A stretch of 64,000 nucleotides of DNA from Planctomycetota bacterium (lineage in GTDB: Bacteria; Planctomycetota; Phycisphaerae; UBA1845; Fen-1342): assembly GCA_045863555.1 (NCBI GenBank), contig BTUU01000003.1, forward strand, positions 34,476 to 98,475. The letters are read 5' to 3'. The notes under the pieces were generated by a model that had not been told where the DNA came from, searched no databases, and saw nothing but the letters and a program-made list of their open reading frames with translations. The translations under genes and the position numbers were made by a program. Of this stretch, positions 6,637-64,000 are shown one piece after another. Within the stretch, counting starts at the first letter, position 1; each line of letters starts with the position of its first letter.

Positions 6637-6781
6637 AATGGGAAGTGTAGAACCGGCGAACGGCGACTCTGTACCCAGTGTCAGATGGACACTTGAATCG
6701 GGCGTGTGACTGGACGCCCATCTTGAGAATGGCAGTGGCAGATCAGATCCCGCGTAACCACGTAGCGGAAGCGCCCGCCGA

Positions 6782-11343: not shown

Positions 11344-11458
11344 TTCACTGGAAAACGGGTGTCGATAGAAACCCTGGACCACCGACCAGCGATTCACGAC
11401 CCCACAGCGTCCAGCTCCGCGGCGCCGCCGGCCCTTTCACCTTTCACATTTCACTCAT

Positions 11459-19065: not shown

Positions 19066-19095
19066 CTCGGGCTGCGTGCGGTTTTCGCCTATAAT
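19066..19095 (+). promoter_or_regulatory. Candidate promoter for typA (perfect TATAAT -10 box)
   Basis: TATAAT at 19090-19095, 62 nt upstream of the typA GTG start. No convincing -35 hexamer. Confidence 0.25.
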
Positions 19096-19156
19096 GCCGG
19101 ATTCGCCGGAGGCACGTTCTCCGGGCCATGCACCAGATATTCTCTCGGGGAAGCGT

Positions 19157-20977
<1,821 letters not shown>

Positions 20978-20990
20978 AGTGTTGACGGCG

Positions 20991-48642: not shown

Positions 48643-48898
48643 GGCCGGCCGGCCGCGAGAATCGGCGCGGCGCGCGTCGGTCGCCCGGTCGTGGTGCGCA
48701 AATCCTGCCACGGCGTCCCCGCCGTCCGGGGGAGGGGAGGGCCCGGTCCGGCAATCGAACTGTGCGAATGCTCCCAGGGGAAAGCCAGCCCGACGAGGAT
48801 GTCGGTACCGGCAGAGACAATGTCGGCCGGGTGGTGCATAATGAGTTCCGGGAAAAAACGTCCACGTGACCGGCGGAAGGCCGGGGAGAGTGCGATAC

Positions 48899-49666
48899 AT
48901 GAAACTTGAAAGCGGACCGGCCCGCACGGACGGCCTCTGGCTCCTCGGCTTCACGGTGCTCTGCGTCGGCTTTGCCGCCTGGTTCTACTACGACGGCAAG
49001 ATCGGCTGGCCGAAGAAAAACCGCGAGCAGGCGCGGAAGCACTTCGCCGGCATGGTTCAGTCGTTGCCCGCCGAATTCGGCTCGCGGCCCTCGAAGGAGA
49101 ATTTCGAATCCGCGATCCGGGCGCGCGTCGCGGATATCACGGCGCTGTACGAACACCTGGGCCAGCCGTTCCATCGCGCCGGCGGCGCAGGCGAGCAGGT
49201 GGAGTACTTCGTCAGCGACTACGGCTATGCCGAGATCAAGGTCGGCGCGGGCGGCCGGGTCGATCTCGCGCCTTCCCAGTGGCATGATTGGGAGCACTCC
49301 AAGAGCCAGATCGAAGGGCAGTTTTACTGGGCGCTCATTCCGGCCGTCTTCGCGGTCATCTGTGCATTTCGGACGTTCCGCGCGTTCACGCTGCGCGTGG
49401 TGATCGACGACGCGGGCATGACCTACCAGGGTCGCAGCATCCCGTTCTCCGCGATGCGCTCGCTCAAGGACTTCAGCCCCAAGGGGTGGGTCGATCTCTA
49501 CTACGACGCCGGGGGCGGTCAGCGGAAGCTGCGCATCGATAACCAGAAGGTCGAGAAGTTCGACGAGATCATCGACGCGCTCTGTGCCGCGAAGGGCTTC
49601 GAAGACCCGCGGCCGGAGCCCGAGGAGGATGAACCGGCCGGCGACCCCGGTGAGGCGAAATCATAG
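48899..49666 (+). CDS. Hypothetical membrane protein
   Basis: Two TM helices (LWLLGFTVLCVGFAAWFYY; FYWALIPAVFAVICAF) and an acidic tail. No recognisable domain. Confidence 0.5.
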   Translation: MKLESGPARTDGLWLLGFTVLCVGFAAWFYYDGKIGWPKKNREQARKHFAGMVQSLPAEFGSRPSKENFESAIRARVADITALYEHLGQPFHRAGGAGEQVEYFVSDYGYAEIKVGAGGRVDLAPSQWHDWEHSKSQIEGQFYWALIPAVFAVICAFRTFRAFTLRVVIDDAGMTYQGRSIPFSAMRSLKDFSPKGWVDLYYDAGGGQRKLRIDNQKVEKFDEIIDALCAAKGFEDPRPEPEEDEPAGDPGEAKS

Positions 49667-49670
49667 GGCG

Positions 49671-51989
49671 TCAGAGCCCTTCCGAGGCTGCGCTGCCCGT
49701 TGACTCGTCGGGCGTTCGAAGTTGCGGTTTCTCTTCCGACTCGCGCCGCTGCCTGTCGCGGGCCTGCTGTGCCGCCTCGGGCGTTGCCAGGCCGCTGAAC
49801 GGCACCTCGAATTCGAGGACTCCCGTGCTGATCAGTGCGATCTTTCGTGCGGGAATCACCCTGACGACGCTGCCGGTCCGATGGAATCGCTTTACGAAGA
49901 CGATTTCCCCGGGACTGAGCGCCGCAGCCTGCTCGTCGGTCAACGACCGGATGAGCGGCCCCCGCGATTCACGGCGTTTTTCCGGACGAGGGGAGGCCGC
50001 CTGCGGCGTCGCTGGCGCGGCGCTCGGCCGCTCTTTTGCCCGCGGCGGAGTCGGCGGCGATGCGGGTCGCGGCGGTGGGGCAGGGGTCGCCGGGGGCAGA
50101 ATCTCGCCGAGCGGCACCTCCACCGAAAAAGTCCCGAGATCGACCTGAGCCCGATGCGCGTCGAGACGAACGCGAACGATCTTTCCGTCGCGGTCGAAGC
50201 TGCGGACCCGGACCGAATCGCCCGGCTGGAGGTGAACGACCCGCTGCACCCACAGCTGAAAATCCGACTGCTGCCGTTCGAAGAGCGCCTTGGCCGCGTC
50301 GGCTTCCGATTGCCGCCGATCCAGATCGAGCCGCGCGTTCTCGGCCGCCGTGCGGGCTTCCTCGGCCTGGCGCTTGGCCTCGATCGTGTCCCGCATCGCC
50401 TTGTGAAACACTGCGTGGCGCTGCGAGACGTTTCGGCGCGCGTTGTGAACCACGCGCCGCGGCATGCCGAGCCGTTCCGCGATCGCGATGGCGTTGCTCA
50501 TCCCCGGTTCGCCGATCAGCAGGTGGTACGTCGGCCGCAGCGACTCGACATCGAACTCCACCGAGCCGTTCTCGACGCGCTGGCGCTGGAGCGGGTAGCT
50601 CTTGAGAGCCCCGAGATGGGTCGTGGCGATGCAGCGTGACTTTCGGCGCAGGAACTCGTCGAGGACCGCCTTGCCGATCGCTGCACCCTCGTCAGGATCC
50701 GTTCCCGCTCCGAGTTCGTCGAGCAGAACCAGCGACCGGCCGCCCGACTTGTGCATCATCTCCATCTGCCGCTTCAGGTGGCCGCTGAATGTGCTCAACG
50801 ACTGCTGCATCGACTGCTCGTCGCCGATGTCGATGAACACGTCGGTGAAGACGCCGAACGTGCTCCCTTCGTCGACCGGCACGGGCATTCCGGCCTGGAC
50901 CATCAGCGAGAGCAGCCCGATCGTCTTGAGCGTCACCGTCTTTCCGCCGGTGTTCGGTCCGGTGATGATCAGCATGTCGAAATCGTCGCCGAGTCGATAG
51001 CTGATCGGCACGATTTCCGGAATCGGCTCGCCGGCGTCCCGCTTCGCACGGACGAGGTCGAGCAGCAGCGGATGCCGCGCCGCCCGCACGTTTACCCGCG
51101 GCTCCTCGACCAGCGGGGGCGTGATCATCCGGAATTCGCGGGCCATGCGCACCTTCGCGATCGTCAGATCGAGAATTGCGAGCGCATCCAGCGTCTTCAG
51201 GATCGCTTCCTCGTTGATATGGATCTCGTGAGCGAGGTCCCAGAGCAACCGGGCGATCTCCTCCGATTCCTGGGCTCGCAGGTTCGTGATCTGGTTGTTC
51301 AGTTCGACGGCGGCCGCCGGCTCGACGTAGATCGTGGCGCCGCTGTCGGAGCTGCGGTGGACGATCCCGGCCAGCCGCCCGCGATATTCCATCTTCAGCG
51401 GCAGCACGAGCCGGTCGTTGAAGAACGTGTGATTGGGAAACTGGAGCAGCCGCCGCACGTTGCCGTCGTGGAGGAGCCGTTCGACGACCAGCTCGATCGC
51501 CGCCATCGCCTCGCCGATCGTCCTGCGGATGCGCAGCAGCTTGGGACTCGCATCGTCGCGCACCTGCATCCGCTCGTCGATGACCGCGGAAATTCGGTCG
51601 CTGACCGTCTTGAAGTCGCCGATACGCCCCGCGATGTGCCGCAATTCCGGGTATGCCTCGGGCAGTTCGGAGAAATAGGCCGTCAGCTCGTGCGTCGCCG
51701 CAAGCGTCTCGCCGATCTGCGCCACATCCTCGAGCGTCACATGCAGCGGGGGGGCGCACTTCCGCACCGCCTCCCGAATGTCATGGACGCCACCGAACGG
51801 CGGCAGGCCCTTGTCCGCCGCGAGCGACCGCAGCTCGGCGACCTGTGCAAGCCACCGCCGGATCAACGCGCCGCGCGTTGTCGGCCGCAGCGCCAGAGCC
51901 ATGCCGCGCCCCAGCGATGTCGCTGCATACCGGGCGACGATCTCGCGCACGCGTGGGAAGTCGAGGCATTCGAGCGAATGCGGGTCCAT
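49671..51989 (-). CDS. mutS2: MutS2-family protein (MutS domain III-V ATPase) lacking a recognisable Smr domain
   Basis: Walker A ITGPNTGGKTVTLKTIGL, ABC signature/Walker B LVLLDELGAGTDPDEGAAIG. C-terminus has a Pro-rich linker and two KOW-like segments instead of the Smr HGxG motif. Start at MDPHSLECL (51989). The 258-codon upstream extension was rejected. Confidence 0.8.
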   Translation of the reverse strand: MDPHSLECLDFPRVREIVARYAATSLGRGMALALRPTTRGALIRRWLAQVAELRSLAADKGLPPFGGVHDIREAVRKCAPPLHVTLEDVAQIGETLAATHELTAYFSELPEAYPELRHIAGRIGDFKTVSDRISAVIDERMQVRDDASPKLLRIRRTIGEAMAAIELVVERLLHDGNVRRLLQFPNHTFFNDRLVLPLKMEYRGRLAGIVHRSSDSGATIYVEPAAAVELNNQITNLRAQESEEIARLLWDLAHEIHINEEAILKTLDALAILDLTIAKVRMAREFRMITPPLVEEPRVNVRAARHPLLLDLVRAKRDAGEPIPEIVPISYRLGDDFDMLIITGPNTGGKTVTLKTIGLLSLMVQAGMPVPVDEGSTFGVFTDVFIDIGDEQSMQQSLSTFSGHLKRQMEMMHKSGGRSLVLLDELGAGTDPDEGAAIGKAVLDEFLRRKSRCIATTHLGALKSYPLQRQRVENGSVEFDVESLRPTYHLLIGEPGMSNAIAIAERLGMPRRVVHNARRNVSQRHAVFHKAMRDTIEAKRQAEEARTAAENARLDLDRRQSEADAAKALFERQQSDFQLWVQRVVHLQPGDSVRVRSFDRDGKIVRVRLDAHRAQVDLGTFSVEVPLGEILPPATPAPPPRPASPPTPPRAKERPSAAPATPQAASPRPEKRRESRGPLIRSLTDEQAAALSPGEIVFVKRFHRTGSVVRVIPARKIALISTGVLEFEVPFSGLATPEAAQQARDRQRRESEEKPQLRTPDESTGSAASEGL

Positions 51990-52101
51990 CCCGCCAATTG
52001 TGCGGAACGGCGTCCAAAGGCACAATGGCGCAGGAATGGAAGGCCGTGCCGAAAAGCGAACCGGAAACCGCGCCGCGCGCGGGGACCGTCGGTCACGCCG
52101 A

Positions 52102-53052
52102 GTGAGCCGACTCGGTTCCGCACCGATCACATTCTTCGCCCGCACCCGGGGGCTGCTCGTGAGCCTCGTCGCCGTGCTCCTTTCCGCGTGTACCCTGCCC
52201 ATTTCCGCCGTCTCGGCCCAGTCTGTCCCCGCAAGCCGCCCGGTCGCATCGAAGCCCGTTTCACCCGAGGCCGCTTTTCTGGGGGAACTCGACGCCGCGA
52301 TCGAAAAACGCCAATTCGCCGTCGTCCTCAGCAAAATCGCGCAGCGGGCGGCGAACTCGCCGATTACCGCGGAAGTACGCCTCCGCGCGGCCCGTGCACA
52401 TCTCGAGCTTGGCGACGCCCTGGGACGCGCCGAGGTCCGGCGCATTGCGGGCGGCGTGCCCGGGCGGTTCATCGGCGAATGGCTGGTCGTCGAACCGGCC
52501 GGACCGGCGGATGAGTTCCTGTGCGCGCCGCCCGCATCGGCCTGCAACCAGGTCCGCCGGGCCATCGACGGCGGCGTGGACACGCCCGCGGCGCATCGGC
52601 TGTTCGCGGAAATCTGGCTCGCGGCCAAGCGCCCGAAGAACGCGATCGCAGTCCTGCGTGCGCATGAGCGGGTGCTGCTGGACGATGACACGGACGCGGC
52701 TCTCCGGCTTTTCGCGCGAGCGCACCTCGCCGCCAACGACCTCGAAGAGTACCTGAGCGTCATGCAGCGGCTGGCGCAGCGGAGCGGTGAGCGAAAAGAC
52801 GCAGTGCTCGCCGATGCCTACTTCGCGGTCGCCGATGTCTACAACCTGCGGGGCGATGAAGCCCTGCATCGTGAGTTCCTCCGGCGGGCGCTCAAGCTGG
52901 CCCCGGAGACGGAAAACCGCATGCTGGAGCTGGCCGATGCGCTCTGGGCGGCAGAAGAAAAGGCCGAGGCGCGGGGCTGGTACCGAAAACTCATTGATCG
53001 GCGTCCGGCGCATCCGGAGCGGCTCCGGATTCTTCAGCGCGTCAGTGAGTAG
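52102..53052 (+). CDS. Secreted tetratricopeptide-like repeat protein
   Basis: Signal peptide (LLVSLVAVLLSACTLPISAVSA), helical repeats (AYFAVADVYNLRGDEALHREFLRRALKLAP; AEARGWYRKLIDRRP). GTG start inferred at 52102. Confidence 0.5.
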   Translation: MSRLGSAPITFFARTRGLLVSLVAVLLSACTLPISAVSAQSVPASRPVASKPVSPEAAFLGELDAAIEKRQFAVVLSKIAQRAANSPITAEVRLRAARAHLELGDALGRAEVRRIAGGVPGRFIGEWLVVEPAGPADEFLCAPPASACNQVRRAIDGGVDTPAAHRLFAEIWLAAKRPKNAIAVLRAHERVLLDDDTDAALRLFARAHLAANDLEEYLSVMQRLAQRSGERKDAVLADAYFAVADVYNLRGDEALHREFLRRALKLAPETENRMLELADALWAAEEKAEARGWYRKLIDRRPAHPERLRILQRVSE

Positions 53053-53159
53053 GGCGAGACGCGCGCCGGGGGCGCCTCCGACCGCTCGCTTGCAGAAGGC
53101 GTCGCAGCGCCGCACAATCCTCCTCCGGTTCGTGATTGCTTTCGGAAGGAAATCTCACC

Positions 53160-55991
53160 ATGTCAGAGCCAGCCGTCATGATCGCCTGTCCGGCGCCCGG
53201 TTGCGGCGCGATGAACCATGCCTCCGCGGTGTACTGTTCACGCTGCGGGGCCGAGCTTCCGCATGGCGATAGCGATTACGAACTGCCCATCAAGGGATTC
53301 GAAGGCACGCCCGATGAGGTGGAGCGGCAGTGGTTTGAGAAGTGCTACAAGGGCCGGGGCGACACGATGCTCCAGCTCACGTGGCGCGCCGTCCTGCTCG
53401 GCTCCCTCCTCGGCGGAATCCTCTCGCTGACCAACATCTACATCGGCCTCAAGGCCGGGTGGGGATTCGGCGTCGCAATCACCGCGTGCATCCTCTCGTA
53501 TGCAATCTGGACCACGCTCTACAAGCTAGGGATCGTCAAGACGCAGATGACGATTCTCGAAAACAACTGCATGCAGTCCACCGCGTCATCCGCGGGCTAC
53601 TCGACCGGCGGGACGCTGATCTCCGCCTTCGCCGCGTACATCATGTTGAACAACGCGACATTACCCCTGCCGCTGATGTTCGGCTGGGTCTTTTTCCTCG
53701 CCGTTCTGGGCGTGACCATGGCGATCCCCATGAAACGCCAGATGATCAACGTCGAGCAATTGCGCTTTCCGAGCGGTGTCGCGGCGGCGGAGACCCTGCG
53801 CGCGCTCCATTCCCACGGTGACAAGGGGCTGAGATCCGCGAAAGCGCTGGGCATCGCGGGTGTGCTCGCAGCGATCAGCAAACTCTGGACGGAGGGGCTC
53901 GCCGTCATCTGGCACGTCCTCGAACCGTTCCAACTGAGCGCCTTCATCGGCAAGATCAACGCCGCGGTGTTCGGGGCGACCTGGATGAGCCGTACCGTGC
54001 TCTTCTCCTGGGAACCCATGTTCATCGCCGCAGGTGCGATCACCGGCGTCCGGGTCTGCGCCAGCATGCTCATCGGCGGAACGCTCTGCTGGATGGTCTT
54101 TGTACCGATCGGTCTCGACGAGAACGTGATTACGCTCACCGTCACCGAGAAATCCGCAAACTCACTCGTCGATCTCGACTTCCGCACGACCGAGCGGCTG
54201 CGCCGGTACGCCGCGTACAACGACACGATCCGCACGCTCAAGTGGGAAGGCATCATGACGACCGAGGACCGCGCTGCGCTCAAGGCGCTGTCCTCGGATC
54301 CGTGGTATCACAGCCTCATTGAACGCCTGTATGTGCGTTCGCAGTTCCAGGCCCGCACTCCCCTGGCGACGATGCCGTCGGTCAATCTCACCGGCGAGCT
54401 CGAAGGCGTCGTGCGGTATGACGCGCGCCACGCGGCCCTGGAGATGCCCGCGGTCGTAGCCCCGGACGTCGTCGAAAAGCTCCGCGCGGCGGGGGGCTCC
54501 CCCGAGTTCCAGGCCGCGGTCACAGCGCTCGCCGAGCGGTCGATCCTGCCGAGCTACGAACCTCTCTGGGCGGCCGTCGATCTCGACGAGCCGAAGCTGA
54601 AGATCCCCGACAACCTGGCTGCCCGGCTTTCGTACGACGCATCCGCGAAAAAGCTCCTGTGGCGCGGCGACCTGACCGATGCCGATCGCGAACGCATCCG
54701 CGCTGTGAGCGCGAGTCCCGCGTTCCTTGCGGCCGTCGATGCACTCCCGGCCGCCGTTTCAAGCCGGAAGATCGAAGTTCCTGAGACACTGGCCGCGGTC
54801 GTGCAATACGACGCGGAGGTCCGGGCCCTGCGGGCGCGCGGGGCACTGCCGGCGGACGCCACGAAGGCCTGGTCCGATCAGGTCAAGGACGATCCGGCCG
54901 CGGCCAAGGCAGTGGCGTCGCTCGTCGCCGCGTCGAAGGCCGGTCGAGCCTCGGAGAACTTCCGTGACATCGTGGCGTGGACCCTCTGGGGCGGCACGGC
55001 CTGCATGGTCACGTCCGGGCTGCTGGCATTCCTTCTCCAGTGGAAGTCGGCCGTCCGGGCCTTCGCGGGCTTTTTCCAGATGTTCGGCGCCACGCGGGAT
55101 TCGAAGCGTGCTGACATCGATGCGATCGAGACGCCGACGTCGTGGTTCATCATCGGTCAGGTCGTATCGCTCATCGCGATTTCCTGGCTCGCCCACTACA
55201 GCTTCGGCATGCCGTACTGGCAGAGCGTCCTCGCGGTCATCCTCACGTTCGCCCTGGCTCTCGTGGCCTGCCGCGTCACGGGTGAGACGGACACCACGCC
55301 GATCGGCGCCATGGGCAAGATCATGCAGCTCACCTTCGGCGTCGTTCACCCTGCGAAGACGGCGGGCGATGTCATGGCCATGAACGTCAACCTCATGGCG
55401 GCGAACATCACCGCCGGCGCGGCCGGATCCTCCGCCGACCTGCTGACGGACCTGAAGAGCGGTTATCTCCTCGGGGCCCATCCGCGGCGGCAGTTCATCG
55501 CCCAGTTCGCCGGCATCTTCGCGGGGACGATCGTGACCGTACTCACGTTCAGCGTTCTCGTCCCCGATGCCTCGGTTCTCGGTACGACGCAGTTCCCCGC
55601 GCCGGCCGCACTGACATGGAAAGGCGTCGCCGAGGCGCTCAGCCAGGGGATCGGCATGCTGGGTCCGGTGAAGACCTGGTCGATCGCCATCGGCGGGGCG
55701 GTCGGCATCATCCTCCCGATCCTCTCGATGACGCTGCCCAAGCGGGCGCAGAAATTCGTCCCGAGCGCCGCCGGCCTTGCGCTCGCGTGGGTGTTCCAAT
55801 GGTATTACGCACTGCTCTTCTTCCTGGGTTCGATTCTCGGCTGGGTCATCGAAAAGCGCTGGCCCAAGGCGGCCCAGGAGTACACGTTCCCGATTGCTGC
55901 CGGCGTCATCGCCGGTGAGAGCCTGATGGGCGTCGCGTTGATCTTCTGGGAGAACGGGCCGGAGATGGTCCGCAAGTTCCTTGGCGGTTGA
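53160..55991 (+). CDS. OPT-family oligopeptide transporter with N-terminal zinc-ribbon and a roughly 280-aa internally repetitive insert
   Basis: OPT signature TM blocks at both ends (LTNIYIGLKAGWGFGVAI...; ...GIFAGTIVTVLTFSVLVPD...WVFQWYYALLFFLG). N-terminal CPAPGC...CSRCG. The central soluble insert shows three repeats of an S/G-x-S/D-P-x-F/Y-x-x-A/L-V motif. Confidence 0.8.
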   Translation: MSEPAVMIACPAPGCGAMNHASAVYCSRCGAELPHGDSDYELPIKGFEGTPDEVERQWFEKCYKGRGDTMLQLTWRAVLLGSLLGGILSLTNIYIGLKAGWGFGVAITACILSYAIWTTLYKLGIVKTQMTILENNCMQSTASSAGYSTGGTLISAFAAYIMLNNATLPLPLMFGWVFFLAVLGVTMAIPMKRQMINVEQLRFPSGVAAAETLRALHSHGDKGLRSAKALGIAGVLAAISKLWTEGLAVIWHVLEPFQLSAFIGKINAAVFGATWMSRTVLFSWEPMFIAAGAITGVRVCASMLIGGTLCWMVFVPIGLDENVITLTVTEKSANSLVDLDFRTTERLRRYAAYNDTIRTLKWEGIMTTEDRAALKALSSDPWYHSLIERLYVRSQFQARTPLATMPSVNLTGELEGVVRYDARHAALEMPAVVAPDVVEKLRAAGGSPEFQAAVTALAERSILPSYEPLWAAVDLDEPKLKIPDNLAARLSYDASAKKLLWRGDLTDADRERIRAVSASPAFLAAVDALPAAVSSRKIEVPETLAAVVQYDAEVRALRARGALPADATKAWSDQVKDDPAAAKAVASLVAASKAGRASENFRDIVAWTLWGGTACMVTSGLLAFLLQWKSAVRAFAGFFQMFGATRDSKRADIDAIETPTSWFIIGQVVSLIAISWLAHYSFGMPYWQSVLAVILTFALALVACRVTGETDTTPIGAMGKIMQLTFGVVHPAKTAGDVMAMNVNLMAANITAGAAGSSADLLTDLKSGYLLGAHPRRQFIAQFAGIFAGTIVTVLTFSVLVPDASVLGTTQFPAPAALTWKGVAEALSQGIGMLGPVKTWSIAIGGAVGIILPILSMTLPKRAQKFVPSAAGLALAWVFQWYYALLFFLGSILGWVIEKRWPKAAQEYTFPIAAGVIAGESLMGVALIFWENGPEMVRKFLGG

Positions 55992-56002
55992 TTGAGGAAG
56001 CC

Positions 56003-56872
56003 ATGCTGTCAAAGAAAAGGTTGGTCAATCGCGGCTTTGCCGCGCTGCTCGCATTGATCGGTACGGGGTGCGCGCCGGCGACGACGCGCTCGGTCGAATC
56101 GACGCAGGAGTCGCGCCCGACGGAGCAGGCAACCGCGACGACGGCCCCCGCGTCGACGCCGGCCGAGGACGAGGCCGCCGAGAAGGAAAAAGCCGAGAAA
56201 GAACGCCGCGATCTCGTCCGCAAGCAGGCCCGCACCGAGCGCGACCTGACGATGGCTCGCGAGCGGATGCGCAAGACGAAGCTCCAGAACGAGTTCAACG
56301 AGCAGCAGGAGAAACTCGCCGACGAAAAGGCGCGCCGCGAGCTCGATCTCGCCGAGCGCAAGTTGCGCACGTTCAAGGAGATCTCGACGCCCGAGCGGCT
56401 GGATCGGGCCGACCTGAGCCTCCAGTACTCGCGCGACAGCGTCGTCGAGGCTCGCCAGGAACTGGAACAGCTCGAAGGCATGTACAAGGACGATCAATTC
56501 GCTGACAAGACGAAGGAAATCGTGCTTGAACGCGGTCGCCGCCGCCTGGAGCGGGCGGAACGCAGCCTCGCGCTCGAAGACCGCGCGATCGCCGCGCTCA
56601 AGGGCGAAACGCTCCCGGTCGAGCTGATCGAGCAGGAAGCCGGGGTTCGAGAGAAGCGCGAGGCGCTCAAGAAACTCGTGTTCGACAATGAGATGGAGGC
56701 GATCGATCGGAAGCTGTCGATTCTCGGCGCCGAGGCGGAGCTGATCCGGCTCGAGGAGGATCTCGAGGACGTCGTCCGCGATCTCAGGGAATTCGATCGC
56801 AAGGCCGCCGAGAAGGCCCGGAAGGCGGCCGGGGTGGCTGCGTCGCAGAGTGCGCCGGAAGGCGGCAAATGA
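56003..56872 (+). CDS. Coiled-coil lipoprotein
   Basis: Lipobox LIGTGC. Ala/Thr/Pro linker, then 200 aa of E/K/R-rich coiled coil. Confidence 0.6.
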   Translation: MLSKKRLVNRGFAALLALIGTGCAPATTRSVESTQESRPTEQATATTAPASTPAEDEAAEKEKAEKERRDLVRKQARTERDLTMARERMRKTKLQNEFNEQQEKLADEKARRELDLAERKLRTFKEISTPERLDRADLSLQYSRDSVVEARQELEQLEGMYKDDQFADKTKEIVLERGRRRLERAERSLALEDRAIAALKGETLPVELIEQEAGVREKREALKKLVFDNEMEAIDRKLSILGAEAELIRLEEDLEDVVRDLREFDRKAAEKARKAAGVAASQSAPEGGK

Positions 56873-57210
56873 TGCGACTTCGCACGTTTTTCCTGCTCGC
56901 GGCCCTCACAGCCTTCGCGGCCACCGGCTGCACGGGCACGCTCGCCGGCCGCTGGCGAATGGTCAAGTGCACGCCGAACCGCGAGACGTTTTCGATCGAC
57001 AACGCCTCGTTTACGTCGAAAGGCGAGTACACGGCGAATTTCTCGCTCGACGGCCGCGCTGAAAAAGAGAAGGGACGCTTCGAGTTCAACGGGTTCAACA
57101 TCACGTTCCGCCCGTCGGCCGGCGGAAGCCGCACGTTCACCGCGGTCCTGCGCCTCAACCGGCTTGAGATCATGGATGGAAAGCGGAATTGCGTTCTTGA
57201 GAAGCAATGA
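56869..57210 (+). CDS. Small lipoprotein (hypothetical)
   Basis: Signal plus lipobox FAATGC. ATGA overlap with the upstream lipoprotein gene, suggesting translational coupling. Beta-rich 90-aa body. Confidence 0.5.
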   Translation: MMRLRTFFLLAALTAFAATGCTGTLAGRWRMVKCTPNRETFSIDNASFTSKGEYTANFSLDGRAEKEKGRFEFNGFNITFRPSAGGSRTFTAVLRLNRLEIMDGKRNCVLEKQ

Positions 57211-57382
57211 CGTGAGCGCCGCTCCCGGCGTTCACGACAACCGATGCCCGGCCGGGACCGGGTCCATGTGCCCCCGCCGGCGTCGCGCCCGCGAGCCGAC
57301 GTGGCAGCCGGTGATGGGTGTGCGGACCGCCGGCGTCAAGATCGGCGGCGCAGGCTGGCAAGGGCGTTCGAGTGAATAGCAG

Positions 57383-57658
57383 ATGGCGACCGAGCGCAGA
57401 CACGTGACGTTCCACGGGCGGGTCCAGGGCGTTTTCTTCCGAGCCACGACCGCCGAGATCGCGGCGGGGCTCGCCGTCACGGGTTTTGTTCGCAATCTGC
57501 CGGACGGAACGGTGGAGCTGGAGGCACAGGGCGAGCCCGGCGAACTCGACCGGCTCATCGAGAGCATCGATCGACGCTATGCGGAGTTCATCCGCGAGAA
57601 GTTCGTCACGCCGCGCCCCACGCTCCCGTCCGAGAAATCGTTCGTCATCCGGCGGTGA
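57383..57658 (+). CDS. acyP: Acylphosphatase
   Basis: VxGxVQGVxFR signature (HGRVQGVFFRAT) and GFVRNLPDGTVEL second motif. 91 aa. Confidence 0.85.
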   Translation: MATERRHVTFHGRVQGVFFRATTAEIAAGLAVTGFVRNLPDGTVELEAQGEPGELDRLIESIDRRYAEFIREKFVTPRPTLPSEKSFVIRR

Positions 57659-57776
57659 AACAGGATTCGCGCGACCGCGCGGCCGCACAACCGGGCAGCC
57701 GCCCAACCGAAGGACGCCGCGGGCGTCCGACCGTCCACTTGTTGATCGTCAATCGTCACGAGCAGTCGCCTCAGCC

Positions 57777-57806
57777 TTGACGCAACCGCGCGGCTGGCGG
57801 TAAATT
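57777..57806 (+). promoter_or_regulatory. Sigma70-like promoter for the tRNA-Leu/tRNA-Arg pair
   Basis: TTGACG at 57777-57782, an 18-nt spacer, then TAAATT at 57801-57806. About 37 nt upstream of tRNA-Leu. Confidence 0.45.
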
Positions 57807-57842
57807 TCCCGATCTGCCTCCGACTCGATCGGACACCGGCTC

Positions 57843-57926
57843 GCCCAGGTGGCGGAATTGGCAGACGCACCAGCTTGAGGGGCTGGCGAGGGCAACCTCG
57901 TGCAGGTTCAAATCCTGTCCTGGGCA
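57843..57926 (+). tRNA. tRNA-Leu (anticodon GAG)
   Basis: 84 nt. Acceptor GCCCAGG/CCTGGGC, anticodon stem CCAGC/GCTGG with loop TTGAGGG giving anticodon GAG, long variable arm CGAGGGCAACCTCGTG, T-arm CAGGTTCAAATCCTG. Confidence 0.9.
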
Positions 57927-57973
57927 GTGGTTAGGTTCTTCGGGACCGAGCCGACAATCTGGCGCAGCGCGCA

Positions 57974-58047
57974 GCACCCGTAGCTCAATTGGACAGAGCG
58001 TCGGCCTACGGAGCCGAAGGTTACAGGTTCGACTCCTGTCGGGTGCG
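57974..58047 (+). tRNA. tRNA-Arg (anticodon ACG)
   Basis: 74 nt. Acceptor GCACCCG/CGGGTGC, D-arm GCTCAATTGGACAGAGC, anticodon stem TCGGC/GCCGA with loop CTACGGA giving anticodon ACG, T-arm ACAGGTTCGACTCCTGT. Confidence 0.9.
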
Positions 58048-59715
58048 ATTTTCCCCTACTCCGTCACTTCCCGCCCCGACCCGCCAAGTATCATCAGAAT
58101 CGCGGGTTACAGATTGTGCCGAATTTCCGTCAACGACAGAGAAACCCAGTTCACGCCCGTTTTCGCCTGATTCCGGACAAGCGATTGACAAGCACGCTTG
58201 TCCGTCGGTTCCTGTTGCGCGTGCTCGCCCGGCGTTCGGCGTCGAGTCGAGCGGCAGCGCCGGGAGCCGGTCCAGTGCCGCGGCGACGTTGACGAGCCGC
58301 TTGTCCGTGTACCGCGCCGTCAGATTCAGCGTGCTATGCCGCATGGCGAATTGGACGGCCCGCGCTTCGACGCCCGCCGCCGCGAGGTGCGACGCGAACG
58401 AATGCCGCAGGCAGTGAAAATCCGCGGAGCGGCCCCGGTCATCGATTTTCGGGATTCCCGCCGCGTCGAGGTCGAGGTCGAATATCCGGATGCCTTGCTT
58501 CGGCATATCGAATAGCGGCGACTCCCCCGACAGTTTCGCCGGGATCGGCTCGCCTGCCGCCCGTGCCGTTTCCCGGAGCGTGTCGAGCCGCTCGGCGAGC
58601 ATCGCCCGCACGTCGGCCGCGAGGTCGGGGCGGAGCACCAATTCCGCCCGCTCGCCGTTCTTCGCGGCGTTGGCATCGACCACGACGTAAGCCGGGGATT
58701 CGTCGAGCACGAGCGAGCGAATGCGGAGCGAGCGCAGCTCATTCCAGCGAAGCCCCGTCAACGCCGCCGCCTTGTAGAGCACGGCCCGTCCCTGGCCCCG
58801 GTGCTCGGCTTCGGCGCGGCGCTTCGCGGAGAGTCGCTCACGTCCCCGGCGTTCGCACTCCGCGAGATTCGCGGGCGTCAACGGCTTTCGCCCGTCGCGG
58901 CCGTGCTCGGCAACGGGTCGGCGTGCGGCCGCGTCAATCAGCCGGGCGAGTTCATCGGCCGTAAACGCCCGGCGCGGGCGACGGCTCTCGGCTTCGCGTT
59001 TCATGCGGGTAAACGGATTCGCGAGCAGTCGATTCTCGGCGACAAGCCAGCCCGCGAACGCCCCGAGCGCTTCGACGTGAGCATTGATGCGCCGCCCCGA
59101 CATTCCGCTCGGATTGCCGTCGGCCGTCGAGGTCGCTTCGGCTTCGCGTGCTTCGGCCCATTTCTCGACGGCTCGGCGCGAGAAATCGCGGAGCTTCGCG
59201 AAACCGCAGTCGGCGAGAATCCGGCGGAGCGCCGCCTCGACGTTGCGGACGTGCGCGGGCGATACCCGCGCCTTGCCGCCCCGGCCGCGTTTATTGCGAA
59301 GGGCGTCGAGGTACTCGTCAACGTGTACGTCGATGGCCGATTTCCGATGGTCCGCCGCCGCCGCTTCCGTCGCCGAGATAGCGCCGCTCGCGACGCGCTC
59401 GACGTGCCGGAGCCGCTCGGCAAGCACAATTCCCGCGCCGTCGAGCGTGCGGCAATTCGTCGGCTCGCGTTTCACGCGGCCCTCGGCGTCGCGGTAGCGG
59501 ATCCAATAACACTCCGCATCGATGAGCACGCCGGCGCCGTCGGCCGTGAGCCGCGCCTCACGCTTGCGGTTCTTGCGATCCGTCCAGCGGGCGAACCGCT
59601 CGCCGCCCTTCGTCACGATTGCCGCGTCCGCCGGGAGTGGCTTCGAGAATGTCGGTTTGAAAACCTTTCCCCTCATGTCGGTCATCTCTTGCCCCTTGTG
59701 CGGCTGCGCGTGCAC
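58021..59715 (-). CDS. Tyrosine-type site-specific integrase (phage integrase family)
   Basis: C-terminal catalytic domain with LRHSFASHLAAAGVEARAVQFAMRHSTLNLTARYT (R..H-x-x-R...Y catalytic tetrad context). The ORF runs antisense into tRNA-Arg with no earlier stop. True start may be MTDMRGKVF or MRGKVF (59685 or 59676). Confidence 0.85.
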   Translation of the reverse strand: MHAQPHKGQEMTDMRGKVFKPTFSKPLPADAAIVTKGGERFARWTDRKNRKREARLTADGAGVLIDAECYWIRYRDAEGRVKREPTNCRTLDGAGIVLAERLRHVERVASGAISATEAAAADHRKSAIDVHVDEYLDALRNKRGRGGKARVSPAHVRNVEAALRRILADCGFAKLRDFSRRAVEKWAEAREAEATSTADGNPSGMSGRRINAHVEALGAFAGWLVAENRLLANPFTRMKREAESRRPRRAFTADELARLIDAAARRPVAEHGRDGRKPLTPANLAECERRGRERLSAKRRAEAEHRGQGRAVLYKAAALTGLRWNELRSLRIRSLVLDESPAYVVVDANAAKNGERAELVLRPDLAADVRAMLAERLDTLRETARAAGEPIPAKLSGESPLFDMPKQGIRIFDLDLDAAGIPKIDDRGRSADFHCLRHSFASHLAAAGVEARAVQFAMRHSTLNLTARYTDKRLVNVAAALDRLPALPLDSTPNAGRARATGTDGQACLSIACPESGENGRELGFSVVDGNSAQSVTRDSDDTWRVGAGSDGVGENRTRQESNL

Positions 59716-59893
59716 TTGATACCTAGGTAGGCTGCCAGTGCATCGGCTTTATCGAGCCGGAGCGAGCGCTCGCCCTTGAGGAACTTCGTCATCGACGCAC
59801 GCTCGACGCCAGTCGCCGCCGCGATCGGATAGAGCGATCCGGCTTCCTTCAGCGCTTCGCGGAGCAGCTCGGTCATTGTTCCGGTTCGTTTCA
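59682..59893 (-). CDS. Small helix-turn-helix DNA-binding protein (excisionase/regulator candidate)
   Basis: MKRTGTMTELLREALKEAGSLYPIAAATGVERASMTKFLKGERSLRLDKADALAAYLGI is an HTH-like alpha-helical 70-aa protein directly upstream of the integrase. Confidence 0.45.
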
Positions 59894-60159
59894 TAGCGAC
59901 AATTGTCTCTCGAAACCGTCCGTTTGTCAATCTCATTTTCTCAAATTCCCTTCTTGAGCCGGTTCGCCGGACAATTCGCGAGCCGACGTGCAACGGCGCG
60001 GAGCCCAACTGTGCTCGCAGCCAGATATCCGCGATCGCGTTGCGGTTCAGCGCCGAACCTGGCTGCCTGAGGCGTCGGTGCATGCTTCGGCGCGCGCCCC
60101 TGTTAAGGGCGCGCCGAAGCACCGATGGGCGCTTGGGCGCCAACGCTGCGCCGAACCTG

Positions 60160-61236
60160 TCAAACCTGGCTGTTGGGGGCATTCACCGCCTCCAAATCGA
60201 GCCGATATACGAGCTTTCCCCGGAGAAGGGTCTCGAATCTCACGAGCCCCTCGGCGAGTGCCTTGTTCATGAGCTGCCTCGTCTCGCGGGTCGTGAAGCC
60301 AGCCGCCTTGGCCCGGTGTTCGACGGCGAGCCGGTCACGCGGCTCAACCGTGTAACATTCGCTCACGAACTTCGGGAGTAGTTCGTCCAGCGATTTCGGT
60401 TGTCGCCGCCCGGGACGAAACAGCTCCGAAGGGTCGAGCCCCTCGTCGAGGTTCCAAACCGGATACTGCCAGCGAATGACGAACCGCTCCGGCGGGGCGA
60501 ACGATCGCACGACAGCGTCGATCGCCGCGCAGCCGTCCTCTGCGTGCGGTCGGATCACAAGATGCGAGTCGCACGCCCTAGACTGCGCCCCGGCCCCAGC
60601 TCCGATATCGGTCGTTGCCTTGTCGGCCTGGTTCCCCTTGCTCGAATGGTGGACCACTCCGAAAGCGCTGTTCATGGAGGCCGCATATGAGTCAATCGCG
60701 TTGTAGACGTTCGCCATGTCGGCATTGTCGTTTTCGTTGCCGCGGAAGAGTCGGTAGAGCGCGTCCAGCACCACGAGCGAGTAGTCTTCGTCCGCCCACT
60801 CTTCGAAGGGCCCACCCAATTCATCGACCGTACAGAGTCGGCCGCGAAGCGAGACCACGTCAAATCGGCCCGCGTAATCCGCCGTGGGGATGCCTCGCGC
60901 ACCGGCAACTCGCCGAATACGGTCTTGGAGCGTCTCGATGTGCAGCTCGTTATCGATGAGCAGTACGCGGCCGCGGTTCGTCTGAAAACCGAGCCACGAC
61001 CGCCCGGTTGCAACCGCAAGCAGCAAGTCCAGGGCGAGCCAGCTCTTGTGCGACTTCGGCCCGCCGACGATGTTGAGCGTCTCTCCGCGCCGGAGTAGCC
61101 CATTGAGGATTGGTGTACGCAATGGGCTGCCCTTCGCAACCAGTTCGGACGCATCTACACGGATGAGCTTCCGATCTCCGGCTATCGCGGCGGCGACGTC
61201 TTCGGCCCGTAGGGTCTCGCCGTACGCCGTTGTCAT
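60160..61236 (-). CDS. AAA_25 / RepA-like RecA-fold ATPase (replicative helicase-loader-like protein of integrative elements)
   Basis: Walker A NIVGGPKSHKSWLALDL, Walker B-like RVLLIDNE and VVHHSSKG. Start at MTTAYGETL (61236). Confidence 0.7.
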   Translation of the reverse strand: MTTAYGETLRAEDVAAAIAGDRKLIRVDASELVAKGSPLRTPILNGLLRRGETLNIVGGPKSHKSWLALDLLLAVATGRSWLGFQTNRGRVLLIDNELHIETLQDRIRRVAGARGIPTADYAGRFDVVSLRGRLCTVDELGGPFEEWADEDYSLVVLDALYRLFRGNENDNADMANVYNAIDSYAASMNSAFGVVHHSSKGNQADKATTDIGAGAGAQSRACDSHLVIRPHAEDGCAAIDAVVRSFAPPERFVIRWQYPVWNLDEGLDPSELFRPGRRQPKSLDELLPKFVSECYTVEPRDRLAVEHRAKAAGFTTRETRQLMNKALAEGLVRFETLLRGKLVYRLDLEAVNAPNSQV

Positions 61237-62276
61237 CGTTGCCCCCGTTTCGCGCGGATCGCCCCGACCGCGCTCGCAAGAACCGTCCGTGCTTCGCGCG
61301 CCGGGAGTCCGCACGCCGCCGCCCCGTCGAGTATGAGCCGCTCCGCGTCCCGCTCGGCGACACCACGCCCCAGCAATGAGCACGCCGCCGCGAACGCCGC
61401 CCGGTTACGTCCACCCTCGCCCGTCCGCCCGTCAAGAAACTCCCGCGTCTGCCCGTCGAGACTCGCGAGCGCCTCAGAGAGTTCCCGCGGGCGAAACTCC
61501 CTCGAAGCCCGTCGTGGCCTCAGCTTCGGGATCCGTGTTCGTGCCTTCGCGACAAGGCGACGCCACGCCGCCGGCTCAGTGAGCGGCACATCGGCCAGCT
61601 CGCGCGGCTCGCCGGTCATCGGGTCGAAGGCTTGCCCGCCGCCCGGCGCCCGAGCCGCGCCCCCAAATGGGAGCGTGAGCGGCCAGCCGAGCCGCGGTCG
61701 GGTCGTGCTCTTCGGGATCAGCTCAACGCACCCGGCCGCCCCGAGTGTCGCCGGCCGTCCGTCGCCGCACGCGAAGCCGTCGCGGTCGAATAGGAGCCCG
61801 CTCGCGACAAGAGCGGCGATTCCGAGCACGCCGTCGGCCAGCGGGGATGGTTCCCCGAGCAAGCACCAAATGTGCACGCCCGAACCCGAGCCGCTCCGCA
61901 CCGCCAGCACGTCGAGCCCGTGCTCGCGGCCGGCCTGGACGATCGCCCGCGCTGCCCGAACTGGGTCAGCGAGTCCGCCCGGCCCGTGCGAAGTGCCGTC
62001 GAGGTCCGCGGCAACCCAGCGGCACAAGCCGTCCGCCGCAGGACAGAACGCCGCTAACAGCGTCGGTGAGACGCGCACCCGCTTCGGCGCGCGGTTGGCG
62101 ATTGACGTCGTCACGGTTGCTGAGAATCCGCCGCCGTGAGCCCCGATGAGGCGCTCAAGTTCGTCGGCATCGATCGGGAGTTCAATCGGGGCCGGATGGC
62201 CTCTCGGCATGATTGCATTGCAGACGCGCGAGCCGGCGATGATATGGCCGATGATGCGTCGCTCGATGGTCGTCAT
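61233..62276 (-). CDS. Bifunctional DNA primase/polymerase (PrimPol N-terminal domain plus PriCT_1 C-terminal domain)
   Basis: LDVLAVRSGSGSGVHIWCLL PrimPol signature. C-terminal GRNRAAFAAACSLLGRGVAERDAERLILDGAAACGLP matches the primase C-terminal-1 motif. Confidence 0.7.
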   Translation of the reverse strand: MTTIERRIIGHIIAGSRVCNAIMPRGHPAPIELPIDADELERLIGAHGGGFSATVTTSIANRAPKRVRVSPTLLAAFCPAADGLCRWVAADLDGTSHGPGGLADPVRAARAIVQAGREHGLDVLAVRSGSGSGVHIWCLLGEPSPLADGVLGIAALVASGLLFDRDGFACGDGRPATLGAAGCVELIPKSTTRPRLGWPLTLPFGGAARAPGGGQAFDPMTGEPRELADVPLTEPAAWRRLVAKARTRIPKLRPRRASREFRPRELSEALASLDGQTREFLDGRTGEGGRNRAAFAAACSLLGRGVAERDAERLILDGAAACGLPAREARTVLASAVGAIRAKRGQR

Positions 62277-62510
62277 CCCCGCACCGGCCGGCCGTCGCCG
62301 CTCCGCGCCCAAGGAAGCGGGGGAGATTGAATTGTCTCGACTGTGGAGTGTACCATCCATCGTGACGATCCTTCGCAAGTCGTCAGTCTTGGTGCCGCGT
62401 CGGAGGGGATCCGACGCGGCACGCTCGTTTCTTGAACCCTGATTCCGCTGGCGTGAGTACCGCTCGCACGCTCCGTGCGAACGCGAGTGGGACCCGCGGC
62501 GCTGCGGCTC

Positions 62511-62726
62511 CTACTCGGCCTCGCACCGACTGGCGAGCCACTTTGAGATGTCCGAGCGGCGCCAGCGAATCAGCCGGGCTGAAAGCCGGACAGGCCGCGG
62601 GGCCTTGCCCGCGTCACAGAGGCGTTCCCACGAGCGCGTTGAGACATTGGCGATCGCCGCCGCCTGGCGCTTGTCGAGCAGTTCGGCCGTCTCGGCGACG
62701 GCCACGGGGGAGGTTTGAACGTGCAT
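62511..62726 (-). CDS. AlpA-family (MerR-like HTH_17) phage transcriptional regulator
   Basis: LLDKRQAAAIANVSTRSWERLCDAGKAPRPVRLSARLIRWRRSDISKWL has the AlpA pattern (L+..EVA...GVS.ST.YR....G.FP.P.+LG.R.V.W...EV..W). Confidence 0.6.
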   Translation of the reverse strand: MHVQTSPVAVAETAELLDKRQAAAIANVSTRSWERLCDAGKAPRPVRLSARLIRWRRSDISKWLASRCEAE

Positions 62727-62819
62727 TGCCTGATACTCCATCTACGGTTCACGGCGAGCCACGTCGGCCCGCGTCAGCCGGAGTATTGCGGCGTTCCCAT
62801 TGAGGAAGTGACGACCGTC

Positions 62820-62858
62820 GTTGATTCTGCGTTGATTCTGCGTTGATTCTGCGTTGAC
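62820..62858. repeat. 3.5 tandem copies of an 11-bp direct repeat GTTGATTCTGC (iteron/operator-like)
   Basis: GTTGATTCTGC x3, then GTTGAC. Lies in the 119-bp spacer immediately upstream of the AlpA-like gene start. 11-bp periodicity means the copies are on the same helical face. Confidence 0.7.
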
Positions 62859-62860
62859 GT

Positions 62861-63784
62861 TCAGTCGGCGAGCCGCCAAAGCCCTTTTCCGGGAGAGACA
62901 ATCAGGGTGCCTAGCGCTGGGTGCTTCCTGAAGATTGTCTGAACGCGAAACGCCTCGGTGGACTTCATTTTTTCGCGCAGCGTCGCAATTGCAACCGTCC
63001 CGGGATAGGCGCCATTTAGGACTCTGACAACCTTGCGCTGCTGCTCGCCCAGGAAGTGGAACTCTGTACCCCGCCACCACCCCGTCGAGTAGTCGCGCGA
63101 AAAGGTCGCCTGTTCGGATTTCGGACTGTCCGCGACCGGCTTTGCGTCTGCCGACTGCGTGGCAGTTTTTGGCGCGAGCATGCCGGCGAGCGTGCGCAAG
63201 GTCGCCGCATCGGTCGGCAGCGTCTTCCGTCTCACGGGAAGGACCCGCGGGCCAAGCGACGTCTTGAGATCCACAGTGACCTCTTCAAGAACCGCGAACA
63301 CGTCACTCTCACGGTCATCCGTTATCAGGTCTTTCTGTGTAACCTGCCTGCACAAGCTGAGATAGGCCGCCATCGGGTTGTCACGCCTGGTGAGATTAGA
63401 TCGGCCCTCGCGATTCGCTCTCGACATCCGCCACGGATTGATCCGGCGGACCTTCTCACCGAGTTCGTCATGAATCGCCGCGAGTCGTGCGTACTTGTCT
63501 GCCAGCGTCAACCGCCGAGTCGGGAAAAAGCCGACTGAGAGGTCAGGCTCTCCGCGATGGCCAGCGTTTGGTCCACGCCGTAGCGTCTCCGCTTTCCAGT
63601 CCCGGAGCATTCGACGAAACCGGTCCATAGCGCCCGGCAGCGCGAGCAGTTCGTCGACGCGAGTAGCAACACGGTGCAGCCACTTCGACGCTGTTGCTTG
63701 ACGATGTTGTTGGAGAAGGGCCCGATGTTCGCGCTGATCGATCTTGCGCTCGTTCACACTCGCCCCTTCGCGTGCGCTCGACAC
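62861..63784 (-). CDS. Hypothetical protein (island cargo)
   Basis: 307-aa ORF with protein-like composition and no recognisable domain. Possible winged-helix-like C-terminus. Confidence 0.45.
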   Translation of the reverse strand: MSSAREGASVNERKIDQREHRALLQQHRQATASKWLHRVATRVDELLALPGAMDRFRRMLRDWKAETLRRGPNAGHRGEPDLSVGFFPTRRLTLADKYARLAAIHDELGEKVRRINPWRMSRANREGRSNLTRRDNPMAAYLSLCRQVTQKDLITDDRESDVFAVLEEVTVDLKTSLGPRVLPVRRKTLPTDAATLRTLAGMLAPKTATQSADAKPVADSPKSEQATFSRDYSTGWWRGTEFHFLGEQQRKVVRVLNGAYPGTVAIATLREKMKSTEAFRVQTIFRKHPALGTLIVSPGKGLWRLAD

Positions 63785-64000
63785 GGGTTATTGGCAGTGA
63801 TCGCCAAATTGCGCGAGAAGTTGCGAGAGATCCGGCAGATCCACGCACCCGCGCCGGTCAATATCCGCCCGCGGCCAGAAATCGGGATCGGAGCTGCAAT
63901 GGCCGAAGTGCGCAAGGAAGACCGCGAGATCGGCGATATCGACGCGCAGGTTGCAGTCCATATCCGCCGGCGTGCAGCACTGCTCGATGTGGAGTAGCCA

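Follow-up and report, generated by a model that had tools for sequence, protein, structure and literature searches.

Near the right-hand end of a 64,000-nt stretch of contig BTUU01000003.1 (the window), part of the Planctomycetota metagenome-assembled genome AMXMBFR47, a list of the open reading frames (ORFs) gives six consecutive minus-strand ORFs beside a gene for tRNA-Arg(ACG), and one of them, encoding a tyrosine integrase, reads into the tRNA gene from the opposite strand. Does this cluster belong to a mobile element, and what becomes of the integrase gene when such an element inserts? We found that the cluster is the left part of a site-specific integrative element of ~20 kb with 18 coding sequences (CDS), inserted in the 3' end of tRNA-Arg(ACG) of AMXMBFR47 and bordered by a 30-nt repeat. 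Sequence reconstruction further indicates that the integrase ORF spans the attachment site of the element (attP), so that integration would replace its C-terminal coding part and bring in a new stop codon at the junction. Proteins neighbouring the element are labelled Phycisphaerales.

The region beyond the window was covered by identical contigs assembled from two sequencing runs. L001 (DRR491769) is 100% identical to window 58014-64000 and reaches window-equivalent 66014; L015 (DRR491768) is 100% identical over 47383-61012, crossing the left attachment site (attL); and L023 (DRR491768) holds the right 10.4 kb of the island, the right attachment site (attR) and 9 kb of flank. L001 terminates at 58014, inside the tRNA gene. 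We did not read this end as an att signal, because it lies 9 nt outside the core; it may reflect a k-mer shared with another tRNA-Arg of the metagenome. No attR-like repeat of at least 12 nt was present within the 66-kb extended sequence, and attR lies farther out, in L023, where the attL core recurs as a direct repeat (30/30 nt identical, Table 1). The distance from core to core is ~19,987 bp (~20.0 kb), provided that the two contigs abut; the gap of ~1.6 kb between the coverage of L001 and that of L023 contains most of hsdM together with the beginning of hsdS. The right flank begins with locus tag AMXMBFR47_08400, and tags 08220 to 08390 stand between the flanking genes, which gives the 18 annotated CDS.

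The same site was found empty in three contigs (L014, L017 and L018) of the same or a 98%-identical lineage. L014 (GCA_020847655.1) showed 98.1% identity to the window from 47383 to 58054 (10.7 kb) and diverged thereafter; there, a gene for a 312-aa protein starts 19 nt after the tRNA. L017 (SRR31809890) and L018 (SRR25730291) carry an uninterrupted site with a flank exactly as on the attR side. Homology to the window stops at 58052 in L017 and L018 and at 58054 in L014, and the attB junction consists of the tRNA followed by TCTTTTCACC. In the island-carrying Logan samples, the region 5' of the same 312-aa gene reads ...GCGGTGCCG-ACAGGTTCGACTCCTGTCGGGTGCGATTTT-TCTTTTCACC, the middle 30 nt being those of window 58023-58052. 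The locus is thus polymorphic for presence and absence of the island: the window and two Logan assemblies have an occupied site, and the right flank directly follows tRNA-Arg in the three empty contigs. In the occupied site tRNA-Arg(ACG) stays intact, an identical 3' end being provided by the island.

The composition of the island also differs from that of its host. The tetranucleotide distance from the host reached z = 4.5-6.2 in five of six 4-kb island windows, the right flank was host-like (z = -1.1 to 0.0), and the cargo half had a GC content of 62.3%, against 66.6% for the host. Because attR and empty sites are present and the composition is foreign, the island is real and has been mobile recently. 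A first-pass annotation of the window had described a tRNA-targeting island, placing attL where the tRNA-Arg gene ends, and had predicted a direct repeat of the tRNA 3' end farther on, an empty tRNA-Arg site in related genomes and a composition distinct from the core genome; each of these was borne out. The locus has the features by which Islander recognizes tDNA islands, namely an overlapping integrase ORF, a full tDNA with a displaced end-fragment repeat, a length within 2-200 kb and polymorphism. Like other islands of this type it has the integrase beside the tRNA, the displaced 3' tDNA fragment at the far end and a crossover in the T-stem region, and its size is near the 13.6-kb non-prophage peak (PMC4383910). 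As a tRNA-borne defence island it is therefore a standard member, with no difference in kind.

The integrase gene is less ordinary. Its longest ORF is 58021-59715, and the publicly annotated start gives the 554-aa form listed in Table 1. It overlaps the 3' end of tRNA-Arg by 27 nt, and its stop codon, TAA at 58021-58023, straddles the junction between core and tRNA. Homologue searches returned 84 matches at E < 1e-10, the closest of them 36-50% identical, 550-710 aa long and mostly from Planctomycetota. Among 15 aligned homologues, R313, K342, H424, R427, H450 and Y459, the catalytic residues, are invariant, and conservation persists beyond Tyr459 up to '..LPALPLD..ATGTDG'. After this block the tails carry a tandem tripeptide repeat at a fixed position with lineage-specific residues (CLSIACP in the island; LVPTLVP, LAPTLAP, FAPGFAP and VALPVAL among others in relatives), which in the DNA corresponds to a direct repeat recurring every 11-12 nt. 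A variable stretch follows, and the terminal peptide reads as an antisense tRNA T-arm (RTRQESNL in the island, GFEPxT.. in others), a signature that we read in 14 of the 15. In the island, P' arm and core are both read as part of the tail beyond Y459. The first-pass annotation had taken the overlap of integrase and tRNA for the classic attL arrangement; attL does lie at the tRNA, and there is more to the overlap than that, in that attP lies inside the int ORF, in this integrase family as in phage Mx8.

Several relatives allowed comparison. L020 contains a complete element, with 11,356 bp between 47-nt repeats, that could be reconstructed at tRNA-Gly; as located with ARAGORN, the int ORFs of L020 and L021 overlap tRNA-Gly(TCC) by 47 nt and that of L025 overlaps tRNA-Pro. 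The ends of L022, a JGI contig, overlap by 131 nt, and their closure gives an 8,705-bp circle and restores an intact AEP primase ORF across the junction. This circle has no complete tRNA, and its 670-aa integrase contains a partial-tRNA core. A circular relative of the island therefore exists.

The att core of the island (58023-58052) lies inside the int ORF, and the cores of L020, L021, L022 and L025 likewise lie inside theirs. When P' arm, core and P arm were joined as in the excised form, the island integrase was extended from 554 to 625 aa and that of L020 from 579 to 676 aa. These two reconstructed forms and the native 670-aa protein of L022 share a C-terminal peptide (…ARLPLSD..AEAVRRLL; Table 1). 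As judged from reconstruction and comparison, then, a conserved peptide stands in frame at the end of the attP forms. The tails of 167-200 codons have no stop in the int frame and 3-8 stops in each of the other sense frames; after shuffling, the int frame remained free of stops in 0.5-0.7% of the trials for each element (P 0.005-0.007; three elements). Within the peptide, 6-9 of 28 codons differ pairwise by synonymous change only, including TCC versus AGC for Ser, a pattern that points to selection on the protein. Pfam searches with the C-terminal extension gave no matches.

The limits of the att identity fit this arrangement. attP and attB cease to be identical exactly where the antisense tRNA has its first stop codon in the int frame, or 1 nt inside that codon (TAA 58021-58023 in the island; TGA 11738-11740 in L020). 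Such an end would be expected if attP had to diverge there to keep the frame open. Since the identity block ends at the antisense-tRNA stop in two elements with different tRNAs, the host tRNA supplies the stop codon of the integrated int gene.

The tandem repeats in the integrase tail recur on the other side of the core. In int-sense orientation, the island repeat GCTTGTC(A/C) is found at -140 and -129 in the P' arm and at +56 and +67 in the P arm; CTTGTACC of L020 at -145 and -133, and at +59 and +71; and CTTGTAC(C/G) of L022 at -145 and -133, and at +50 and +62. The P-arm pairs were detected independently by TRF. The 22-nt P' pattern of the island occurs once in the 64-kb window (chance expectation 0), and all four CTTGTAC occurrences in the 8.7-kb circle are at these positions. 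The repeats are thus paired and in reading frame on either side of the core, and because their positions are conserved while their sequence is lineage-specific, we consider them probable arm-type sites bound by the N-terminal domain of Int; the GCTTGTC-repeat DNA of the island, GCTTGTCAAnCGCTTGTCC, is a candidate target of that domain. We also considered whether the motif near attR was the remnant of a second integrase in a tandem element. This was rejected, as its orientation relative to the core is wrong and L022, a closed circle, has such paired repeats as well.

In an AlphaFold model of P0149, the 670-aa integrase of L022, the N-terminal beta-rich, core-binding and catalytic domains are confident, residues 510-633 form a linker with a predicted local distance difference test score (pLDDT) below 50, and two C-terminal helices score above 90. 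The best structural matches were the Brujita and full-length lambda integrases, with Brujita on top. By analogy, the integrase is probably lambda-like with an N-terminal arm-binding domain. The ~125 residues between the catalytic domain and the C-terminal peptide are predicted to be disordered, and the DNA for this stretch would hold the arm sites and the core.

In PMC6070905 and PMC4383910 (the latter citing Tojo 1996), attP of Mx8 is described as lying within the int coding sequence, with integration into a tRNA gene giving int a new 3' end; the Islander authors, in PMC4383910, note attP within int for both Mx8 and SSV. The likeness to Mx8 intP/intX comprises attP inside int, remodelling of the int 3' end by tRNA integration, and a long integrase (> 500 aa). 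Mx8, however, is a 49-kb phage, whereas the carrier here is a 20-kb non-viral island, and the part lost here, whatever its counterpart in Mx8 may be, is a conserved two-helix peptide on a predicted disordered linker housing both arm-site pairs. A tblastn search of 50,697 phage records detected no similarity to Mx8 Int; the only matches were two Thermus phages, at 30% identity in the catalytic domain. Because there is no detectable sequence similarity, the island integrase would be a parallel or very distant case. In SSV-type archaeal integrases the recombination site also lies inside the int ORF and integration alters the gene, according to PMC7253208; there, integration splits the gene and disrupts an enzyme of an archaeal family. 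Here the family is bacterial, the split point is 95 codons after Tyr459, and all six catalytic residues are kept, so that integration is not suicidal in the SSV sense. In Brujita and BPs, as Broussard et al. are reported to have described in 2013, integration changes the C-terminus of a regulatory protein; in these phages it is the repressor gene, rather than int, that contains attP.

By analogy with IntP and IntX of Mx8, remodelling of the integrase may bias or regulate the direction of recombination, and the 554-aa and 625-aa forms may differ in activity. A bolder proposal, which we advance tentatively as possible rather than probable, is that these proteins form a Planctomycetota integrase family with a built-in topological switch. 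Full-length Int would be made only from the circle, and truncated Int, with its tRNA-supplied stop, from the chromosome; a two-helix module would lie beyond attP, the DNA for the disordered linker would comprise the core and both arm pairs, and direction or level of recombination would be set by the integration state and not by an excisionase alone.

Table 1. Positions of the features discussed, in window coordinates unless a contig is named (tags with prefix AMXMBFR47_).
Feature	Position	Strand	Locus tag	Basis and remarks
tRNA-Leu(GAG)	57843-57926	+		ARAGORN
tRNA-Arg(ACG), integration target	57974-58047	+		ARAGORN; same tRNA at empty sites L014 and L018
attL core, 30 nt, ACAGGTTCGACTCCTGTCGGGTGCGATTTT	58023-58052			T-stem to 5 nt beyond tRNA end; exact copy at attR
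attR core	L023 10401-10430, ~ window-equivalent 78010-78039			all 30 nt as in the attL core
Tyrosine integrase, integrated form, 554 aa (GMU80951.1)	58021-59685	-	08220	Phage_integrase 5e-12; PHROG_1 3e-27
P' arm direct-repeat pair, GCTTGTCAATCGCTTGTCCGGA, 11-nt period	58172-58193	-		inside int tail, encodes 'CLSIACP'; candidate arm-type Int site
P arm matching pair, GCTTGTCAAACGCTTGTCCGGA	~L023 10326-10347			beside attR; TRF
C-terminal peptide, island (reconstructed), LVDALTMLARLPLSDVERAEAVRRLLAE				
C-terminal peptide, L020 (reconstructed), FAEAVAMLARLPLTDAERAEAVRRLLAG				
C-terminal peptide, L022 (native), FAEALAMIARLPLSDADKAEAVRRLLLS				
Small Cro/C1-type helix-turn-helix (HTH) protein, 64-70 aa	59682-59894	-		HTH_26 weak, E = 1e-3; 4-nt overlap with int start
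AAA_25 (RepA/DnaB-like) ATPase, 358 aa	60160-61236	-	08240	AAA_25 E = 2e-30
AEP-family primase-polymerase with PriCT-like C-terminal helical domain, 347-375 aa	61233-62360	-	08250	fold model, homologue profiles
Palindrome, 13-bp stem (10 GC pairs)	62392-62422			between alpA and primase gene
AlpA-like HTH_17 (MerR-type, excisionase-family fold) protein, 71-76 aa	62511-62741	-	08260	HTH_17 29 bits versus cutoff 27
Perfect tandem array, 3.5 copies of 11-nt CGTTGATTCTG	62819-62857			78 nt upstream of alpA, after 298-aa gene
298-aa protein	62861-63757	-	08270	no family match; 34%-identical homologue in L020 element
HAF-repeat protein, 399 aa	63788-64000 (C-terminal part); gene runs to window-equivalent 64987	-	08280	NCBIfam HAF_rpt 6e-17
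DCD/EVE-like protein, 162 aa	L001 222-710, window-equivalent 65305-65793		08290	Pfam 1.7e-18

The genes upstream of int form a replication and regulation core, which the first-pass annotation had named correctly as integrase, HTH protein, AAA_25 ATPase, PrimPol/PriCT primase and AlpA-like regulator; Pfam, PHROGs and a fold model of the primase supported it, PHROGs agreeing with Pfam for the integrase, the regulators and the helicase. Domain searches of the kind it had proposed gave clear matches to Phage_integrase and AAA_25 and one above cutoff to HTH_17, whereas Phage_AlpA, PriCT_1 and AEP-TOTE stayed below cutoff, and the small protein next to int, which it had called Xis-like, is of the Cro/C1 type and not an excisionase-family member. 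This small protein is 55-63% identical to the product of the gene upstream of int in relatives, and a promoter-like site stands ahead of its gene at 59930-59902. The AAA_25 protein, a putative replicative helicase, matches the helicase part of PHROG primase-helicases (3e-36).

The primase was below the Pfam cutoffs for both AEP-TOTE (24.4 versus 27) and PriCT_1 (18.2 versus 21.1). A search of 1.84 billion representatives returned 35 close homologues of ~350 aa (E < 1e-30) and more distant ones of 850-1000 aa; among 26 aligned homologues, 11 matched PriCT_1 and 9 AEP-TOTE. An HMM search of the alignment against PDB sequences gave no match, so that fold comparison was needed. The AlphaFold model (pLDDT 90.5) matched in Foldseek the CAPP Prim-Pol 7p9j (probability 1.0, target-normalised template modelling score 0.72) as well as LigD polymerase domains, and D119, D121 and H163, in DxD and sGxGxH-type motifs, are invariant or nearly so. 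The model thus confirms the AEP fold.

The AlpA-like protein scored 20.7 against the Phage_AlpA cutoff of 21 and matched PHROG 66, 'excisionase and transcriptional regulator' (3e-8); its homologues in relatives are 44-49% identical, and it is a candidate regulator of excision or transcription. Two DNA features lie near its gene. The palindrome could be a terminator or an operator. The 11-nt array resembles iterons and may serve as origin or operator; no equivalent was found in the relatives L020 and L022.

Beyond the array lies the gene for the 298-aa protein, at which the first-pass annotation had let the cargo begin and run past 64000. The cargo does continue there and is of defence type; the 298-aa gene itself may belong to the backbone, because a homologue occurs in a related element. 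The 298-, 271- and 227-aa proteins had no Pfam matches. Past the HAF-repeat and DCD genes, and transcribed divergently from the DCD side, there is a type I restriction-modification (R-M) system with the N-terminus of HsdM, HsdS (PADLOC 3e-81) and HsdR (E = 0, 1156 bits). The HsdM N-terminus appears typical, with PF12161 in all close matches, most of hsdM lying outside the contigs covered; a homologue search with its 45 aa returned short fragments only and no exact match. Between hsdS and hsdR (L023 3207-4439 and the 2167-3156 region) are genes for a 271-aa protein without assigned function, a DUF4268 protein that matches PDC-S11, a candidate system of PADLOC (2e-128), and a protein of 410 aa that has a HicA-toxin domain at its C-terminus; these three appear to be accessory genes embedded in the R-M operon. 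On the opposite strand beyond the R-M genes follow a protein with HTH and M78 peptidase domains (PADLOC RmrA, 2e-52) and the 227-aa protein. As judged from these matches, the cargo, about half of the island, is mainly anti-phage defence.

Scans of genomes and metagenome contigs returned relatives of the DCD protein that were 38-53% identical. A DCD gene adjoins type I R-M genes also in two other Planctomycetota loci, L003 (~10001-10394; HsdM-HsdS-HsdR divergent) and L007 (3787-3966; HsdR adjacent). Because the adjacency is repeated in three Planctomycetota loci, it suggests a functional link between a modified-base reader of the DCD/EVE-like type and type I R-M.

An integrase with AlpA and a primase plus helicase is the gene set common to P4-like satellites and Gram-negative phage-inducible chromosomal islands (PICIs). 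The island could accordingly be thought a phage satellite of that kind, excising and replicating upon infection by a helper phage and being packaged in helper capsids. With these satellites it shares, besides that core, the tRNA insertion and the defence cargo; the order AlpA-AEP-helicase-int recurs in L034, where the helicase is a DUF3987 protein; family integrases are found in IMG/VR viral contigs as well; and the family size of 9-20 kb falls in the satellite range. Yet P4-like elements have an alpha-type primase-helicase fusion, whereas in the island AEP and AAA_25 are proteins of their own, a helper phage is not known, and about half of the island is defence cargo. PHROG matches for capsid, terminase, packaging or capsid-size redirection were absent from the island and from the 8.7-kb circular relative, and no psu, delta, sid, terS, ppi, capsid-related or P4 alpha-type genes were found in PHROG and Pfam scans of the island proteins (the ~1.6-kb hsdM/hsdS region lying outside the scans), although remote homologues of packaging genes may be among the island proteins without a family. 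We therefore regard a satellite as unlikely. With no packaging, relaxase or conjugation genes found, the first-pass label 'phage-satellite-like or mobilisable' lacks support.

It is still harder to see the P-arm peptide as a separate small gene, for instance for a recombination directionality factor, that starts at the conserved Met of '..AMLARLPLSD..' and shares a continuous frame with int incidentally. The Met directly before ARLPL is kept in all three elements, and the linker from core to peptide varies in length and sequence, as such a gene would allow; conservation, however, starts 6 residues upstream of the Met, with FAEA(L/V)AM, int and peptide share one uninterrupted frame in both reconstructed elements as well as in P0166 and the native protein of L022, and the coincidence of the end of the att identity with the antisense-tRNA stop in the island and L020 is expected only if read-through matters. 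This makes a separate gene improbable. Least credible of all, in our judgement very improbable, is an immobile, decaying remnant of a prophage or island, with the length of the int ORF and the P-arm peptide explained as leftovers or as frames open by chance. Long chance ORFs do occur in GC-rich DNA, one 90-codon tail staying open with a chance of roughly 10% (estimate), and the attP junction of the island is not among the assembled sequences. Against decay stand the perfect 30-nt repeats, the occupied and empty sites in contigs with flanks 98-100% identical, the intact set of catalytic residues, the closed circle of a relative, the peptide conserved through synonymous changes, and, in each of three independent elements, a tail for which int is the sole open frame (P ~0.005-0.007 each).

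We therefore prefer the reading as a mobile defence island with an integrase that spans attP, and, together with the mechanism proposed below, we consider it very probably correct. Several points weigh against it. The size of about 20.0 kb depends on the abutting of contigs with ~1.6 kb uncovered between them. An excised form of this island did not turn up, the 554-aa protein being the only form in the 90% cluster to which its integrase belongs, and a circular replicating form of the island is suggested by analogy with its relative. Pfam scans of the island proteins scanned revealed no relaxase or type IV secretion system domains, and no machinery for transfer came to light. Translation of the C-terminal peptide could start at its own conserved Met, or the peptide may never be produced, and the model confidence for the tail comes from very few sequences. 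Integrase relatives at 36-38% identity (L026, L028, L029) stop soon after the catalytic domain, and the arrangement of int across attP is therefore not universal. Finally, the replication genes of the island have no detectable similarity to those of the relatives defined by the integrase; recombination and replication modules are therefore exchangeable.

In the mechanism that we propose for the mobile island, the integrase would recombine the 30-nt core with the help of paired arm repeats ~130-140 nt away on one side and ~56-67 nt on the other. By analogy the island may still excise and replicate; the AEP primase and AAA_25 helicase encoded on the excised circle would probably replicate it, with the 11-nt array as a candidate origin. 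The Cro-like HTH protein and the AlpA/HTH_17 protein probably regulate expression, excision or both, and one of them may act as directionality factor. The defence cargo would benefit the host and so maintain the island in part of the population.

Because its att sites are exactly located, near-identical lineages have the site either empty or occupied, and one relative is circular, the island is among the few precisely delimited mobile elements of Planctomycetota. In the literature searched, phage Mx8 is essentially the one described case of a bacterial int gene that extends across attP and is altered when integration occurs; the same logic appears here in a separate family with ~80 detectable members. 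Beyond the Mx8 logic this family appears to have a conserved detachable C-terminal module, a predicted disordered linker doubling as attachment site, and arm sites fixed in position and lineage-variable in sequence. It offers a testable system for feedback of the integration state on recombinase activity and for the sharing of DNA by a coding sequence and a recombination site.

Some further loci were noted in passing. The IMG/VR contigs L025-L029, predicted to be viral and 16-82 kb long, carry family integrases (36-38% identity) at contig ends; those of L025 and L027 read into a tRNA, and those of L026, L028 and L029 stop early. In L019 (Phycisphaerae), two HTH_17/helicase/int elements (6149-12130 and 17998-21444) lie side by side next to tRNA-Gly(TCC), the 3' part of the tRNA being duplicated 64 nt apart (21306 versus 21370); the double element may be a tandem array. 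In the first integrase of L019 (P0148, 709 aa), the tail is long and lacks any tRNA-like segment. Outside the island, in the host right flank, a single gene at L023 15502-17277 encodes a 591-aa protein with both the VipA and VipB domains of the type VI secretion system, that is, a fused sheath protein.

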